This document shows, in pieces, positions 21,844 through 29,643 of a stretch of 32,000 nt of DNA (positions are counted from its first letter, which is position 1; every line of letters begins with the position of its first letter). The translations under genes were made by a program, and so were the position numbers. The DNA lies in assembly GCA_038889235.1 (NCBI GenBank), contig JAWAHN010000001.1, positions 312,403 to 344,402 of the forward strand. Reading direction: 5' to 3'. A model generated the notes under the pieces. It was given only the letters and a program-made list of their open reading frames with translations. It made no database searches and was not told the origin of the DNA. The DNA comes from Candidatus Jordarchaeales archaeon (lineage in GTDB: Archaea > Asgardarchaeota > Jordiarchaeia > Jordiarchaeales > Freyrarchaeaceae).

Positions 21844-22542
21844 TCACCTACCTGGCAGGTTTCTCCGCTCGCGGATGCTTCCAAGCATGTTCTTCAGCTC
21901 GAACCACTTCTTCTCGGCTTCATCGAAGGACATCAGCTTTTCAGCGAACTCCTCTTCACCCTCAAGGTAGAGGGCATAGGCTATAACTGCGACGTCGTAG
22001 CCGCCTAGTAGGTCCCTGTTCTTAGCTGCGGCTTCGTACGCCCCCCGGGGGTGGACGGCCACCATGTCCCTCCAGTTGGTCTCCCTTGTGTAGTCGCAGG
22101 TCAGCGTGAACTCGTATGGTCCACCCGGGTCCGCGAACTCGTGTGCGCTCAGCCAGGGTATCCTGGCGTTAAGCTTGACGGCGAGGTCGAAGAGATGCTT
22201 GTCGGAGAGACGCTTCACCAGGCTGCCGAAGACGTCGAGGAAGGCGCCAGCTTTTTCAGCGACACTGGAGCCCGGGAGGTCTTCATCGCTCGCCTTAACC
22301 AGTTCGTCCACCACCAGCCTACCCAGCTCTTCGGCTAGGGTGAGCACTCTTTCGAACTTCTCTTCTTCCACAGGGTTTCGCTTCCTAAGCTCCTCTAGGT
22401 CAACGGACCTAACGAGGTCGACGATCTCGCCACCGAGAAGCTCCCTAATTCTCTCCTCGTAGTCCTCGTCGACAAACCAGTCCCTGCTAGTCTTCCGCCT
22501 GCCACCTGCACGGCCCTCACTCATGGAAACCAGCCCCTGCAA
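21844..22542 (-). CDS. Hypothetical acidic helical protein
   Basis: 232-aa ORF with coding-like composition. A TATA box about 25 nt upstream of TTG 22542 would allow leaderless initiation; ATG 22524 is an alternative start. Confidence 0.75.
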   Translation of the reverse strand: MQGLVSMSEGRAGGRRKTSRDWFVDEDYEERIRELLGGEIVDLVRSVDLEELRKRNPVEEEKFERVLTLAEELGRLVVDELVKASDEDLPGSSVAEKAGAFLDVFGSLVKRLSDKHLFDLAVKLNARIPWLSAHEFADPGGPYEFTLTCDYTRETNWRDMVAVHPRGAYEAAAKNRDLLGGYDVAVIAYALYLEGEEEFAEKLMSFDEAEKKWFELKNMLGSIRERRNLPGR

Positions 22543-22585: not shown

Positions 22586-23563
22586 TCAACCCGGCTTCCC
22601 GGAGAGGGAGTCCACTCTGAAGTCGAAAACCTCCACCTCGCGCCGTCCATCTGTCAGAAGCAGTTTCTTGCCCGCCGTCACCTCTCCAACCACAGAGGCG
22701 GCCACCCCTCTATCCTCGAATATCTTAACACACTTGCCGGCGTTCTCCTGTCTGGAGGTTAAAACAACTCCGAACCCGGGGTAAGCCCTCACCCACCTCT
22801 CAATTTCAACCCCTCTAGGCGCGGGTATCGCTCTAACGTCGACTACGCCGCCGACGCCGCTCGCCTCAAGCATCATCGCCAGTGTTCCTATGATCCCCGG
22901 GTTGCTCACATCTTTCGCCGCAGTCGCCAGCCCGGCTTCTGCGATAGCCCACATCGAGGAGAGTCTCGCCCTCACCTCCCCAGGCGTCCTCCACAACGTG
23001 GTGTCCCAGGCATAGGGGAACCTCTCGTGGAACCTCCCGTCGACGTCGACGGCGAAGACTATCCTGTCCCCTGGGGAGGCGGTGTCGCTGAACACTACCT
23101 TACTCTTATCGACGAGACCGGCTACGGCGACGGAGAGCTCGTCGGACGGAGCGTCGGGTTGAAGGTGGCCTCCAACCACGGGAACGGAGAACTTCCTGCA
23201 ACCGTAGGAGAGCCCCTTGAGGAGGAGGGATGCTTTACCCCAGTCTCGCACGTTAAGCGAGTCTAGAAGGGCTACGGGGCGTCCCCCCTTAGATACTACG
23301 TCGTTAACGTTGACTAGCACAGAGCAGTAGCCGGCGAAGAACGGGTCGGAGTCCACTAGGACGTGCCACATGCTGTCGACGGCTAGGAGAAGGTACTCTC
23401 CCCACCCGACGTCGAGCACAGCAGCGTCCTCTCCAAAGCCTCGCACCACGAAGCTCGAAAACTCGAGCGTCTCCTTCAGGAGGGATGTAACTTTGCGGAT
23501 GTCCCTCTTGCGCGCCACGCCCTCGAAGCTCCTAACCGAGAGAGCTATAGATTCGATGTCCAA
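22586..23563 (-). CDS. AIR synthase-related (PurM/SelD superfamily) protein, methanogenesis marker 2/Sll0787-like
   Basis: GEDAAV, AGYCSVLVNVNDV..KGGRP, GGH, WDTT, KDVSNPGIIGTL and W...YPGFG. TTG start at 23563 after GGTGG; the longer ORF-track start would lie inside the tRNA. Confidence 0.85.
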   Translation of the reverse strand: MDIESIALSVRSFEGVARKRDIRKVTSLLKETLEFSSFVVRGFGEDAAVLDVGWGEYLLLAVDSMWHVLVDSDPFFAGYCSVLVNVNDVVSKGGRPVALLDSLNVRDWGKASLLLKGLSYGCRKFSVPVVGGHLQPDAPSDELSVAVAGLVDKSKVVFSDTASPGDRIVFAVDVDGRFHERFPYAWDTTLWRTPGEVRARLSSMWAIAEAGLATAAKDVSNPGIIGTLAMMLEASGVGGVVDVRAIPAPRGVEIERWVRAYPGFGVVLTSRQENAGKCVKIFEDRGVAASVVGEVTAGKKLLLTDGRREVEVFDFRVDSLSGKPG

Positions 23564-23592
23564 AAGCCCACCGTCCCTAGTTAGAACGAGAT

Positions 23593-23735
23593 TGGCGGCG
23601 GGCTGGGGGATTGCCGCCCGCAAGGGGCATCGAACCCCGAACCCTCACCGGGTTCCTCGGATCTCTCCTCTAGTTTGAAGTCCGAGGCAGGGGACTGGGC
23701 GGGGAATTAGGCCTCCACCCCCGCTGCAGCCCGCC
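23593..23735 (-). tRNA. selC: tRNA-Sec (anticodon UCA) with three introns (23714-23695, 23674-23663, 23628-23611)
   Basis: Spliced 93-nt product: GGCGGGCTG CA GCGGGGG TGGT CCCCTGC CTCGGA CTTCAAA TCCGAG GAACCC GGTGA GGGTTC GGGG TTCGATT CCCC CAGCCCGCC G CCA. It has a 9-bp acceptor, 7-bp D stem, 6-bp anticodon stem, long variable arm, 4-bp T stem, G73 and encoded CCA. Each intron forms a BHB/BHL motif with consistent cut sites. Confidence 0.93.
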
Positions 23736-23762
23736 ACCAGGAAAAACAACCAGCAAAAACAC

Positions 23763-23776
23763 CTTATAAACCCTTC
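23763..23776 (-). promoter_or_regulatory. BRE/TATA promoter of the tRNA-Sec transcript
   Basis: Minus strand GAAGGG-TTTATAAG ends 28 nt upstream of the mature tRNA 5' end. Confidence 0.7.
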
Positions 23777-23850
23777 AATAACAAGAAGGCAACACAAAAA
23801 GTGAAAAAGGAAAAAGCGGTGAGTGAGGAAGGTAATGGAAGGGTGCTTTC

Positions 23851-25710
23851 TTAGAGTTTTCCGGCCGCTTCGTCCAGGGTTTTCTTCCAGAGTTCGCCGA
23901 CGACGCCCTTGTACCTCTCTTCTTCTTGCTTGTATATGTCTTCAACCGGTTTCCCTTCCATCTTCCTTTTCTCCTCTTCGACTAGTAGGCGTCTCCACGC
24001 CTTGCCCACGTAGGTCTTCGGTATTGAGTCGCGGAATTCGACTATCCTCGGGTACTTGTACGCTGCCAGGCGCTTCTTGCACCACTCTATTATCTCTTCC
24101 TCGGTGACTTTGCCCTTGTACTCGGGACGCAGGACGATGAAGGCCTTTATGTTCTCGCCCACAGCTGGGTCGGGAACGCCTACGACGACCGCTTCTAGGA
24201 CCGCTGGGTGCTGGTAGAGCACCTCTTCAACCTCCCTCGGGAACACCTGGTACCCCTTGTACTTTATCATGTCCTTCTTGCGGTCCACGATGTAGAAGTA
24301 GCCGTCCTCGTCCATCCTGGCGAAGTCACCCGTCCTCAGCCACTTTATGCCGTCAAGCTCGAAGAACACTTTCTTGTTCTCCTCTGGCCTATTCCAGTAA
24401 CCTTTCATAACTTGCGGCCCAGCTACGACTAGCTCTCCGACTTCTCCCATTGGGAGAAGCTTGTTCTCCTCTGGGTCAGCTATTGCAGCGAGGGTTCCGG
24501 GGAGCGGGATGCCTATCGAGCCGATCTTCCTAAGCCCCCTAGGTGGTGGCGTGTTGACGTGTGTCACAGGACATGCTTCGGTCAGCCCGTACCCTTCAAG
24601 TATGGGGACCCCTGTGATGCTCTCAAACTTCCTCGCCACCTCCACTGGGAGGGCGAATGCACCACTCGACACGAACTTCAGCGACGACAAGTCGTACTTG
24701 TTTATATCCGGGTGCTCGACCATGTTAAGGAATATCAATGGGACTGCCGGGAAGACGTTCACCTTGTACTTCTGTATGGCTTTCAAGATCTCCTTTGTTT
24801 CCGGAACGGGTAGGATCACTATGGTTGCCCCGCCGAGCAACGGGAGGTTCATACCAGTGGTCTGCCCGTAAATGTGGAACCAGGGTATCACCGCCAGCGT
24901 AACCAGCTTTGCCCCGCGCATGAAAGCGCTCCTCATCCACTCCTCAAGCTGCCTGCACTGGGATACTATGTTGAAGTGGGTTAGCATGGCTCCCTTAGGG
25001 GTACCTGTGGTGCCTCCAGTGTACTGGATCACTGCGACGTCTTCTTTCGGGTTTATCTCCACCTTTGGGGGTTCTATAGGGCCGCCTGCAAGCGTCTCAA
25101 TATTAAGTAAGTCCATGAAAGTGTACCTGTTCGGGGCGCTTGGCACGCGAACTGAAGGAATGCGCCCTATGAGCTTGCCCAGAGACTTCACTGTTCCCTG
25201 CAACATGTCGCCTACATTTGTTACGACCTCGAACTTTAAGTTCAGTCTGTCGCGCACTGGTAGAACTCTTTCGACGAAAAGCACGTCCATGGATATGAGT
25301 GCGGAAGCGCCGGAGTCGTTGATTTCGAACTCTATCTCGCTCGACGTCAACAGGGGGCTTAGCGGGACAACTGTGCCACCGATAGCCAACGTCGCGTAGT
25401 AGCTTATGACGAACTGAGGCGAGTTAGGCAGCAAGAGCGCTACGCGGTCACCTTTTTCTATGCCCAGGAAGTGCAGCGCCGCAGCCATCTTCCTGACGTA
25501 TTCCCCGAGCTCGGCGTACGTTATCTTCCGTGTGATGAAAATCAACGCATCCCTGTCGGCGAAGTCCTCGCAGCTCCTCCTGAACATCTCATACAACGAC
25601 ACACCCTTTGACCGCATGGCCAGCATCGGATCCATGGGAACGGTCTCGTCTGCGTAGAACTCAACCCAGGGCATGTTTCTAACGTAGTCCGGCAGCTCAC
25701 TCACCACCAT
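23851..25710 (-). CDS. Long-chain-fatty-acid--CoA ligase (FadD-like AMP-binding enzyme)
   Basis: QYTGGTTGTPKG, GYGLTE, WLRTGD, DRKKDMIKYKG and YKYPR motifs. Confidence 0.94.
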   Translation of the reverse strand: MVVSELPDYVRNMPWVEFYADETVPMDPMLAMRSKGVSLYEMFRRSCEDFADRDALIFITRKITYAELGEYVRKMAAALHFLGIEKGDRVALLLPNSPQFVISYYATLAIGGTVVPLSPLLTSSEIEFEINDSGASALISMDVLFVERVLPVRDRLNLKFEVVTNVGDMLQGTVKSLGKLIGRIPSVRVPSAPNRYTFMDLLNIETLAGGPIEPPKVEINPKEDVAVIQYTGGTTGTPKGAMLTHFNIVSQCRQLEEWMRSAFMRGAKLVTLAVIPWFHIYGQTTGMNLPLLGGATIVILPVPETKEILKAIQKYKVNVFPAVPLIFLNMVEHPDINKYDLSSLKFVSSGAFALPVEVARKFESITGVPILEGYGLTEACPVTHVNTPPPRGLRKIGSIGIPLPGTLAAIADPEENKLLPMGEVGELVVAGPQVMKGYWNRPEENKKVFFELDGIKWLRTGDFARMDEDGYFYIVDRKKDMIKYKGYQVFPREVEEVLYQHPAVLEAVVVGVPDPAVGENIKAFIVLRPEYKGKVTEEEIIEWCKKRLAAYKYPRIVEFRDSIPKTYVGKAWRRLLVEEEKRKMEGKPVEDIYKQEEERYKGVVGELWKKTLDEAAGKL

Positions 25711-26100: not shown

Positions 26101-29100
26101 CTAGGAGTTAATCCTTGTTCGCTGCTTCCTGAGTCGTGACATGCGGATTCTTCTGGTTCGTCGCAGCCTCCGCGACAGGAACTTGTCGTGCCATGACTTG
26201 AACCACATCGGCAGCTTCTTTCTTTGCTGTTGTAATGCGAGCTCGACACTTGCCATCCTGCTGGCTGGCCGACTTACGGCGTTGAAAATGCTTTCGCGCG
26301 TCTTCATGGCTGCATATCTCGTTAACGATGCCGTGAGCCTTGCAGCGTTGGAGAGGCGTGTTCTAGTTCTGTAGTAGAGCATGTAGGCTCTGGTCTCAGG
26401 AGCGAAGTACTTCTTCTGCACCCTCCGAGCGGCTCTGCCCGCGGCGAGAGCCACTGGTGGAACGATGATCCTGGCAACTATGGCGCCTATCAACGCGAAC
26501 ATAGCTAGGTTCAGTGGGGAGAGCGCTAAGGCTAAGGATGGTAGGGATAGCGGTCCAGCTGATGTGAGCGCTGAGGCGGACTGCATCGCCACGGTCGAGC
26601 CAACACCTATCAATGGCGCTGTGAAAGCATTCAGTGCACCGACTATCTCCGTCGTCCCCGTTATGATGACATTGTTGGGTGTCACTGTCATAGTTCCCTC
26701 AATGTTTGTCGATCCAACTATCATTGATTGAGCCATCGTCACTTGGCCGAAGGTGAACATCGGGTTTATGAGCATTGACGCTGGGAGCGACTGAGACATT
26801 AAGATCTGCATGAGTCCTCTGACAAGCGTCGCACCGTAAGTTATGGTTGGAGCCATTATAAGCGTGGTTCCGCTTATCCTAGCGTTACTCAGCGTGAGGG
26901 TGCCAGTGGACTCTATGTCACCCATTATCTTCACGCTGCACGCTATCTCTGTGCCCGCCTTGGTCACCTTCAACACGCCGTTAACGACGTCGATCCTGCC
27001 GTCACGTATAACCGTTGAGCCGCTCGTAACCAGGCTGCTGGCAGTGAGCGAAACGGTGCCCGTTAATAGGTTGTTGGTGTTCATACTGCCCGAAAGCTCG
27101 ACATGGCCAGTTATCTTCGATGAGCCAGACATCTCGATGATTTCGCCGTTCATCGTCGCGTTGCCCATAATAGTCAACGTACCGCTAACCCTCAGGCTTC
27201 CATCTACCCTGACACAGCCGTCGATAAGTATGCCGGAGACACCTATATCCGTGGTGCTATCGGTCATTGTTAGGCTGCCGTTTATGAGTTGGCTGCCTTC
27301 GACCTCGATCACTCCTGAAGCAGCCATGACAGCGTTCCTCAGAACGCTCACACCGTTAACATCGGAGTCACCAACAGACATGAGCGAGCCGCTTATCAGG
27401 TTTCTGCCGCTTATTGTAATTACACCGCTGATTACACTGGACTCGCCGCCCATCCTTATGCCGCCACCAGTAACTTCCGAGAAGCCATTTAATGTTTCAA
27501 TAGAACCAGACTCAACCCTCATGGAAGTGGACGGAAGGGCGACTATTTCGATAGTCCCTTCGATGACGTTGCGTGTGCCGTTCATAACGATGCCGCCGCT
27601 TGTGATGACTGAAGAGCCACCCTCCATGCTAATTGAGCCAAGCAGAACCTTCATCGAGGTAAGCGGGGCAACACTTATCTCTATACTGCTACCCCTTATG
27701 ACGCTTGAGTCACCGCCCATCTTAATATAGTCGCCAGCAACCTCCACGTAACCATTCTCGGTTTCAATGGAACCAGACACGATACTCATCGAAGTAGGCA
27801 AAATTTCCATCTTTATACTCTCGCCTTCCATCGTTAGATCCCCAGTCACCTTAAGCCTGCCCTCGATCCTAAGGCCACCAGAAACCTCTGTAGTTCCAGT
27901 CACAAAGATACCCGAAGAGTTAACCTGCATCCCTCCCCCGCTCATGGTTAGGCTGCCGTTTATGAGTTGACTGCCTTCGACCTCGATCACTCCTGAAGCA
28001 GCCATGACAGCGTTCCTCAGAACGCTCACACCGTTAACATCGGAGTCACCAACAGACATGAGCGAGCCCACAATCTTCATCTTGCCGTTTATTGAAACCA
28101 CACCGCTGATAACAGAGTCGCCAGACAACTGGACTAAGTCAGCTGAGATATAAGATGACCCTGAAGGCATACTGATATTACCCTGCACCTCGAAAACATA
28201 CCTCCTACCCGCACCGTAATCCCTCTCCAGCAGGAGAGAACCCGTGAGGTTCATACCGCAAGTACTAATGACTGTTGAAACAGGATACTCTTGGTAACCA
28301 TTAACAGTAACCGTGGCACCACTACTGATTTCTTGGCCATCAGATATAACCTCGGCATTACTCATGGATATGCTGCTCGCATTTCGCACCCACATATAGC
28401 TATTACATCCCCAGGAAGCGGTAAAGACATTCAAAGCTTCAATGTGAACCAGGGGACTGGTAACACTACCGGAACCATTGATTTTAAGTCCAGCTTGGAC
28501 CCCCGTTGAACCACCATAAAAAGTCATCGCAACAGTCGAGTTAGATCTAAGCATGAACCTGCTATTGTTAAGAAGCACCACGCTCCCGTCAAGCAAAATC
28601 ATAGGATTAATCCCCTGACCGGTCCAAGTCTCCCAAGAGGTCCCAGCAGACCACCGCATCAAAGCAATATCAATGTAATAATTATTACCAGTAGCTTTCT
28701 CAATAATAAGATCATCTAAATCTATAGTTTGAATTCCAATACCTAGAACCTCGAATCGGATACTTGGAAGCTTTCCGTCTTCGGCAAGCTTGCTGAAATT
28801 AGCGATTCCATTATAGCTGGTAAGTGAAACTACATTGCTACCAATCCACTCTTCCGATATTATTCCGGGTACTTCGATGTCGAATTTTACATGTGTGCAG
28901 TTAATTGTAATTACTACGTCGGCTGTAGCTCCTATTTGGACTCTAAGGAGTCGACTGAGGAGACTGATCAGCCCGCCTGCTTCATTGTATTCTTTAGTGC
29001 TGATAATTAATGTCCCCTGGAGCACTCGTATAGCAGTTCTGGTGTCTGACCTGATTAGTCTAGTGCTATTTAACAGATCGCCTATGAGTCCACCTGCATT

Positions 29101-29643
29101 ACTAGCTGAAGAGTTTACATACATGTACATGTTGCTTGCTTGCAGACTTAGGCATCCCCTTATGATGCTTCCCTGAGCATCATATACTGCTCCTATCGTT
29201 ATGTTTCCTTCTGCTTCGAATTTCGCTGGATATGCTTCGTTACCTATGAGGTTGACATATGCTACTCCGCCAGGAGTTACTGATTCTGCTTGCGTGAAGC
29301 TTTTAGCGTATATATCTAAGATTGCTGGTTGATTATTGATCCCTCTTATTGTCACACCTGGTCCCATCTTCACGCTTGTTGCTCCACTCGAAGTTATAAT
29401 TATGTTGCCTTTCAGCGTGCTTAGCCCTGTTATGTTAACTGGGCTTTGGACTGCGTGGAGTCCGGTTATTATTGTTTTTCCTGTGGTTGTTGTTTGGAGT
29501 GGTTGAGCTCCGCTCTCCGTCAGTACATATGCTGCTACTACTGGCGTGTTTAGCATTGTTGTTGAGAAAGCTAATGTTGTTATGAGGAAAACTAGCACTA
29601 CTGATATTATAACACGTTTCCAGAGTTTTACACCTCCCTCCAT
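26101..29643 (-). CDS. Large membrane-anchored surface protein (1180 aa): signal peptide, Gly-periodic beta-solenoid-like repeats, C-terminal TM helix and Arg-rich tail
   Basis: N-terminal KLWKR plus hydrophobic stretch; G-x-h-x-h-x periodicity; about 17 N-x-S/T sequons; TM LNLAMFALIGAIVARIIVPPV; basic tail. Confidence 0.88.
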   Translation of the reverse strand: MEGGVKLWKRVIISVVLVFLITTLAFSTTMLNTPVVAAYVLTESGAQPLQTTTTGKTIITGLHAVQSPVNITGLSTLKGNIIITSSGATSVKMGPGVTIRGINNQPAILDIYAKSFTQAESVTPGGVAYVNLIGNEAYPAKFEAEGNITIGAVYDAQGSIIRGCLSLQASNMYMYVNSSASNAGGLIGDLLNSTRLIRSDTRTAIRVLQGTLIISTKEYNEAGGLISLLSRLLRVQIGATADVVITINCTHVKFDIEVPGIISEEWIGSNVVSLTSYNGIANFSKLAEDGKLPSIRFEVLGIGIQTIDLDDLIIEKATGNNYYIDIALMRWSAGTSWETWTGQGINPMILLDGSVVLLNNSRFMLRSNSTVAMTFYGGSTGVQAGLKINGSGSVTSPLVHIEALNVFTASWGCNSYMWVRNASSISMSNAEVISDGQEISSGATVTVNGYQEYPVSTVISTCGMNLTGSLLLERDYGAGRRYVFEVQGNISMPSGSSYISADLVQLSGDSVISGVVSINGKMKIVGSLMSVGDSDVNGVSVLRNAVMAASGVIEVEGSQLINGSLTMSGGGMQVNSSGIFVTGTTEVSGGLRIEGRLKVTGDLTMEGESIKMEILPTSMSIVSGSIETENGYVEVAGDYIKMGGDSSVIRGSSIEISVAPLTSMKVLLGSISMEGGSSVITSGGIVMNGTRNVIEGTIEIVALPSTSMRVESGSIETLNGFSEVTGGGIRMGGESSVISGVITISGRNLISGSLMSVGDSDVNGVSVLRNAVMAASGVIEVEGSQLINGSLTMTDSTTDIGVSGILIDGCVRVDGSLRVSGTLTIMGNATMNGEIIEMSGSSKITGHVELSGSMNTNNLLTGTVSLTASSLVTSGSTVIRDGRIDVVNGVLKVTKAGTEIACSVKIMGDIESTGTLTLSNARISGTTLIMAPTITYGATLVRGLMQILMSQSLPASMLINPMFTFGQVTMAQSMIVGSTNIEGTMTVTPNNVIITGTTEIVGALNAFTAPLIGVGSTVAMQSASALTSAGPLSLPSLALALSPLNLAMFALIGAIVARIIVPPVALAAGRAARRVQKKYFAPETRAYMLYYRTRTRLSNAARLTASLTRYAAMKTRESIFNAVSRPASRMASVELALQQQRKKLPMWFKSWHDKFLSRRLRRTRRIRMSRLRKQRTRINS
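27269..27390. repeat. 122-bp direct repeat, copy 1 (copy 2 at 27947-28068)
   Basis: 121/122 identical; the single mismatch (27292/27970) is synonymous. Offset 678 nt = 226 codons. Confidence 0.97.
27947..28068. repeat. 122-bp direct repeat, copy 2
   Basis: Encodes GSLMSVGDSDVNGVSVLRNAVMAASGVIEVEGSQLINGSLT, the same as copy 1. Confidence 0.97.

Follow-up and report, generated by a model that had tools for sequence, protein, structure and literature searches.

Sun et al. 2021 (ISME Commun, PMC9723677, Fig. 3d) reported a tRNAsec, identified with Secmarker, in the Jordarchaeia MAG LHC_bin_1308 together with selenocysteine (Sec) machinery; the sizes given for Asgard tRNAsec in its supplementary text range between 86 and 142 nt, and the word "intron" is absent from the main text. 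Valentin-Alvarado et al. 2024 (Nat Commun, PMC11291895, Supp. Data 4) list tRNA-SeC genes with three introns in Atabeyarchaeia-1 and -2 (R2DT), and a tRNA-SeC with one intron in Freyarchaeia. Mariotti et al. 2016 (PMC4989117) described a Lokiarchaeota tRNAsec with one 31-nt intron in the T-loop, a group for which the original prediction for the locus studied here also names intron-containing tRNA-Sec, and in a 2022 review (PMC9499178) it is still cited as the only archaeal tRNAsec with an intron. Multi-intron tRNA genes are moreover known from Thermoproteales (Sugahara et al. 2008, as cited in PMC11291895).

Here we provide an explicit and comparatively supported exon-intron map of a Jordiarchaeaceae tRNA-Sec gene, which had until now appeared in the literature only as a Secmarker hit of excessive length; we found no text in the literature that lays out a three-intron map for this family. 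The source is a hot-spring Asgard archaeon that is Jordarchaeum-like. The stretch of DNA analysed, referred to as the window, is 32,000 nt long (G000:C1:312403-344402) and belongs to an assembly of 2.14 Mb in 8 contigs that is 95% complete.

The tRNA-Sec gene is located on the minus strand of the window at positions 23593-23735 (5' end at 23735, 3' end at 23593), as given by alignment to the Rfam tRNA-Sec model RF01852 and by ARAGORN after removal of the inserts. The pre-tRNA body is 143 nt including G73 and a genomic CCA; it starts with GGCGGGCTG and finishes with CAGCCCGCC-G-CCA. Exon 1 (23715-23735, 21 nt) comprises the 5' strand of the 9-bp acceptor stem, a 2-nt linker, the 5' strand of the 7-bp D-stem and D-loop bases 1-3, and is followed by predicted intron 1 (23695-23714, 20 nt) between bases 3 and 4 of the 4-nt D-loop. 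Exon 2 (23675-23694, 20 nt) carries the last D-loop base, the 3' strand of the D-stem, the 5' strand of the 6-bp anticodon stem and the loop to position 37 with the UCA anticodon, and predicted intron 2 (23663-23674, 12 nt) occupies the canonical 37/38 site. Exon 3 (23629-23662, 34 nt) begins at position 38 and holds the 3' strand of the anticodon stem, the variable arm (5-6 bp stem), the 5' strand of the T-stem (4 bp) and positions 54-59 of the T-loop. Predicted intron 3 (23611-23628, 18 nt) lies at 59/60 in the T-loop, and exon 4 (23593-23610, 18 nt) completes the gene with T-loop position 60, the 3' strands of the T-stem and the acceptor stem, G73 and CCA.

Removal of the 20-, 12- and 18-nt inserts leaves 93 nt, corresponding to a 90-nt tRNA and the encoded CCA. 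The original prediction had described this product as a 9/4 tRNA with anticodon UCA and had named a long D-stem, G73 and a long variable arm as further hallmarks of archaeal/eukaryal tRNA-Sec, and each of these features was recovered. Specifically, the unconstrained minimum-free-energy fold of the spliced sequence is a 9/4 cloverleaf (-59.8 kcal/mol), ARAGORN classifies it as tRNA-SeC(tca), and the 9-bp acceptor stem and the 4-bp T-stem, i.e. a 13-bp acceptor/T helix, are present in this fold and also in a consensus fold that includes five further tRNA-Sec sequences of Asgard archaea and shows compensatory changes. The D-stem has 7 bp (one G:U), the usual length in most archaea, and a 4-nt loop, UGGU, which forms only once intron 1 is out, and after removal of intron 2 the anticodon arm has a 6-bp stem and the 7-nt loop CUUCAAA. 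The variable arm is long with a stem of 5-6 bp (6 bp in the minimum-free-energy fold), the T-arm has a 4-bp stem and the loop UUCGAUU, and the discriminator G73 is followed by the encoded CCA.

It had also been anticipated that standard scanners would miss the gene, and this was the case: ARAGORN predicted no tRNA in the whole 32,000-nt window and Rfam at the gathering score gave no match in it. In a permissive search of positions 23450-23900 (451 nt) the unspliced gene was the sole match to RF01852, with 27.8 bits (E=0.0018) versus a gathering threshold of 47 bits. The model nevertheless aligned end to end on 23598-23734 (minus strand), and large insertions were seen only at the three intron sites (26 vs 4 nt in the D-arm, 13 vs 1 in the anticodon loop and 19 vs 1 in the T-loop). 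In the whole genome ARAGORN predicted only 14 tRNA genes. According to a 2026 preprint (10.64898/2026.10.13.758758), a Jordiarchaeaceae tRNA gene contains ~2.0 intervening sequences on average, and the low number fits with nearly all tRNA genes in the lineage being interrupted. The best whole-genome match to RF01852 (30.7 bits; G000:C2:40794-40901), which was considered as a second tRNA-Sec candidate, is actually a tRNA-Leu(UAA), whose acceptor stem has 7 bp and whose D-loop carries an insert of ~30 nt; the window gene is therefore the sole tRNA-Sec candidate found in the genome.

The bulge-helix-bulge (BHB) motifs quoted in the original prediction are all present. For intron 1 the central helix is GGGT:GCCC (4/4 pairs) with the bulges GG^A and AG^T, for intron 2 it is CTTC:GGAG (4/4) with AA^A and AG^A, and for intron 3 it is TTCG:CGGC (3/4, i.e. 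one mismatch) with AT^G and AA^T. The flanking outer and inner helices have 2 and 2 bp (intron 1), 7 and 0 bp (intron 2) and 4 and 3 bp (intron 3), and the three predicted introns are hence relaxed forms and not strict hBHBh' motifs. In the case of intron 2 the anticodon stem serves as outer helix, the inner helix is lacking and bulge 1 runs into the terminal loop; for intron 3 the outer helix is the 4-bp T-stem. The central helix of intron 1 takes in the first base of the D-loop and three bases of the D-stem, and its outer helix is out of register with the D-stem of the mature tRNA. When the precursor is folded to minimum free energy, an intact D-stem with an internal loop is favoured over this BHB, which implies that intron 1 would be excised after a conformational switch or be recognised as an HBh'-type substrate. 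As a check against chance, every combination of position and length was tried within the 143-nt stretch; 0.5% gave a 4/4 central helix together with an outer helix of 2 bp or more, and 4.2% gave at least 3/4.

For comparison we used the orthologues in two genomes of the same genus as the window genome (G002, which is LHC_bin_1308, and G003) and in one of another genus in the same family (G004). No tRNA-Sec orthologue was found in G001, where absence is not implied given that this genome is 73% complete. Across the window gene and the three orthologues the exons are 91-93/93 identical. Exon 1 has the same sequence in all three relatives and exon 2 is the same in 4/4 orthologues, while the sole changes are a G>A in the variable loop of exon 3 in G004 and a C>T in exon 4 of G002 and G003, which converts a T-stem G:C into G:U. 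Identity among the introns is 49-74%, and their lengths range between 16 and 20 nt for intron 1 (18, 16 and 17 nt in the relatives, with different sequence), 12 and 24 nt for intron 2 (15, 13 and 24 nt in the relatives) and 17 and 18 nt for intron 3. All 12 orthologous introns keep the BHB rule, with a 4-bp central helix (4/4 in 11, 3/4 in one), in which four bases 5' of the first cut pair with the four that precede the 3' bulge, and two 3-nt bulges on opposite strands, and in 12/12 each of the two cuts lies between the second and third bulge bases. The single mismatch is that of intron 3 in the window gene; in G002, G003 and G004 this helix is 4/4, and the intron-side strand varies (CGGC, CGAA, CGGA) while pairing with TTCG is kept. 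Together these data support a tRNA-Sec gene that is predicted to be split by three archaeal BHB introns.

The junctions could also be placed without use of the BHB motif. Four intron-less tRNA-Sec genes from other Asgard families, which score 59.8-62.6 bits against RF01852, are colinear with the spliced product and read UGGU, CUUCAAA and UUCGAUU at the three junction points, and all three junctions fixed in this independent way have BHB geometry. In the joint alignment with these genes 19/28 base pairs show double-sided (compensatory) changes and 2/168 cells are unpaired. An exact pattern scan with exon 3 in public genomes gave matches in "Candidatus Jordarchaeum sp. LHC_1308", "Candidatus Jordarchaeales archaeon JZ-1_202007_bins_29", "Candidatus Jordarchaeia archaeon QZM_A3", two "Candidatus Freyarchaeota" records (of which one is the complete chromosome CP147778.1) and two other MAGs.

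A spliced tRNA-Sec in which at least one junction lies elsewhere, e.g. with the T-loop cut at 58/59 to give UUCGAAU or with the D-arm intron removed via a non-BHB structure, is very improbable. At junctions 1 and 2 a shift by one base is possible in each case and leaves the product unchanged, and the outer helix of the D-arm BHB is weak, with another conformer as minimum-free-energy fold. However, UUCGAAU is found in no intron-less relative, as all of those compared have UUCGAUU, and the 58/59 cut was therefore ruled out; moreover, the bulge rule applies at the same cuts in the 12/12 Jordiarchaeaceae introns and in the D-loop and T-loop introns of Freyrarchaeaceae.

The gene may instead be a decaying relic, i.e. 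a former tRNA-Sec gene that has been disrupted by insertions and is out of use, which we regard as very improbable. At first sight selD is frameshifted in the assembly, and this could suggest a degrading pathway. Its coding sequence is broken by a 31-nt frame-shifting insert, which lies outside the window (G000:C1:553441-553471). The insert has a 4/4 central helix, GTGT:GCAT, flanked by AC^A and AA^G as bulges, contains an inner hairpin of 8 bp, and is kept with compensatory changes in G002, G003 and G004 (30-34 nt). Its removal results in a 334-aa SelD in which the matches to Pfam AIRS (48|49) and NCBIfam NF010705 (90|91) are contiguous exactly across the junction. As judged by these features, the selD insert is a predicted, conserved BHB intron, and a frameshifted pseudogene was rejected. 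Against a relic also stands the comparison of the tRNA-Sec exons, 91-93/93 identical across two genera, with the selD coding DNA of the same genomes, which is 70-76% identical; this indicates strong purifying selection on the exons.

The remaining Sec machinery is likewise in place. The genes that the original prediction named as a check, SelD, PSTK, SepSecS, SelB and in-frame-UGA selenoprotein genes, were all found in the genome: intact genes for SepSecS (412 bits), SelB/EFSec (306 bits, above the cut-off and directly upstream of SepSecS) and PSTK (192 bits, E=8e-57, which is under the curated cut-off of 290.5 bits), and SelD with U in its HGUACK active site. Two genes of the MvhD/FlpD family (G000:C1:748885-749253 and G000:C1:441260-441607) give full-length profile matches, retain two in-frame TGA codons each and are both likely to encode selenoproteins.

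We also observed that the Sec genes are loosely grouped within one 40-kb stretch, with the adjacent SelB/EFSec and SepSecS genes (G000:C1:350598-353293) ~14.5 kb and PSTK (C1:374773-375516) 39 kb from tRNA-Sec. An AIR-synthase-related ORF (window 22586-23623, minus strand) is present directly downstream of tRNA-Sec in this non-methanogen lineage. It belongs to the "methanogenesis marker 2" family TIGR03267 (370 bits); with this match and no Sec link evident, a SelD paralogue tied to the tRNA was rejected. Its overlap with the tRNA is an artefact of the longest-ORF rule, since the likely start is a TTG near 23563, downstream of the tRNA. For two other ORFs on the minus strand of the window, of 1180 aa (26101-29643) and 232 aa (21844-22542), there was no Pfam match at E<=0.001.

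Finally, retention of the inserts in a mature tRNA-Sec that is ~140 nt long and has enlarged D, anticodon and T loops would agree with the 86-142 nt given for Asgard tRNAsec by Sun et al. 2021, whose main text makes no mention of introns, but is extremely improbable, since an anticodon loop of 19 nt and a T-loop of 25 nt would, by established tRNA knowledge, be unfit for decoding and for the T-loop/D-loop contact, insert sequence and length evolve freely while the BHB geometry persists, the anticodon-loop insert is wholly missing in Freyrarchaeaceae, and EndA and RtcB are encoded.

We consider it highly likely that the locus is a functional tRNA-Sec gene, whose precursor, interrupted by three BHB introns (D-loop, 37/38 and 59/60), is processed by EndA and RtcB into a Sec-decoding product. 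Transcription would start from a promoter with a probable archaeal TATA box, TTTATAA, at 23764-23770 (minus strand), which lies upstream of the gene at a distance of ~30 nt from its 5' end. The 5' flanks of the four orthologues have diverged except for a single conserved block, TTTATAAG (TTAATAAG in G002). A scan for sigma-70 promoters and intrinsic terminators found nothing, as expected for an archaeon. EndA would then cut the six bulges, each after the second base. The genome encodes two EndA paralogues with 33% identity. In one of them the "DHAP" motif has the catalytic His, and in the other Val is at the aligned place, a pair that resembles the catalytic and structural make-up of the broad-specificity (alpha-beta)2 enzymes and that may have the corresponding subunit roles. 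According to PMC5829648, relaxed, non-canonical introns are cleaved only by (alpha-beta)2 or epsilon2 EndA, (alpha-beta)2 being one of only two EndA types able to cut them. The four exons would be ligated by RtcB (600 bits) to give the 90-nt tRNA with its encoded CCA in the archaeal 9/4 fold. This tRNA would be charged with Ser by SerRS, phosphorylated by PSTK and converted by SepSecS to Sec-tRNA with selenophosphate from SelD, and SelB would carry Sec-tRNA to in-frame UGA codons.

The Sec pathway would on these grounds place a splicing demand of three excisions in tRNA-Sec and one in the selD mRNA. It is conceivable, although we think it rather unlikely, that the Sec pathway in Jordiarchaeaceae hangs on EndA and RtcB such that splicing could gate or regulate decoding, and, separately, that the D-loop and 59/60 introns are ancient, predating the split between Jordiarchaeia and Atabeyarchaeia and perhaps Lokiarchaeia. 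The 2026 preprint (10.64898/2026.10.13.758758) argues that shared intron positions generally need at least two events, and the present gene adds one more locus to the question of whether such positions reflect common descent or repeated gain. In practical terms, general scanners such as ARAGORN and Rfam at the gathering score overlook this gene, and the map should help Sec annotation in intron-rich Asgard genomes.

With respect to known systems, the original prediction knew of no three-intron tRNA-Sec and suggested that Sec usage may be under-called in this lineage. Neither view stands: the Atabeyarchaeia genes in PMC11291895 and the tRNAsec and Sec machinery of Jordarchaeia in PMC9723677 mean that the window gene is not the first three-intron tRNA-Sec and that Sec use in the lineage had not been overlooked, and the picture of its distribution is unchanged. 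The parallel drawn with the multi-intron tRNAs of Thermoproteales applies to the mechanism, as their genes likewise carry up to three BHB introns each, located at non-canonical sites and cut by a broad-specificity EndA, but not to the lineage, since the window genome is an Asgard (Jordarchaeum) and Thermoproteales belong to a different phylum. We know of no tRNA-Sec or Sec pathway on record in Thermoproteales. The Lokiarchaeota tRNAsec resembles the window gene in being an Asgard tRNA with the archaeal fold and a non-canonical T-loop intron, but differs in having one intron only. The congeneric LHC_bin_1308 gene is an orthologue with 92/93 identical exon positions and three inserts at the same sites, whereas the inserts differ in sequence and in length (16, 13 and 17 nt vs 20, 12 and 18 nt).

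On the Freyarchaeia chromosome CP147778.1 (G006, 3,576,204 nt) we located the tRNA-Sec within G006:C1:810300-810650, with a length of ~153 nt and introns of 28 and 32 nt; the published tRNA-SeC with one intron (810415-810536) appears to end inside the T-loop intron.

Freyrarchaeaceae, from the same GTDB order, have tRNA-SeC genes with near-identical exons and with D-loop and 59/60 introns that have 4/4 central helices, but in the four genomes there are two introns (28 nt in the D-loop and 32-33 nt at 59/60) and none at 37/38, where 4/4 orthologues are uninterrupted and read CTTCAAATCCG, which equals the predicted junction of intron 2. The Atabeyarchaeia-1 and -2 genes, which were found only by Secmarker, have three introns like the window gene, but belong to a different Asgard class, are ~175 nt long and have longer introns. 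By our own reading, the Atabeyarchaeia-1 introns in the D-loop (…GGTGG^A … AA^T…) and at 59/60 (TTCGAT^G … AA^T) are at the same positions as in the window gene, and the same two positions are seen at the published tRNA-SeC coordinates in both complete Atabeyarchaeia genomes (G021 and G031), while the presumed third intron was placed by eye in the oversized variable loop/arm and not at 37/38. The D-loop and 59/60 positions are thus common to two Asgard classes, being shared by the tRNA-Sec genes of Jordiarchaeaceae, Freyrarchaeaceae and Atabeyarchaeia, whereas the 37/38 intron, lacking in the latter two, is specific to Jordiarchaeaceae among the genomes searched.
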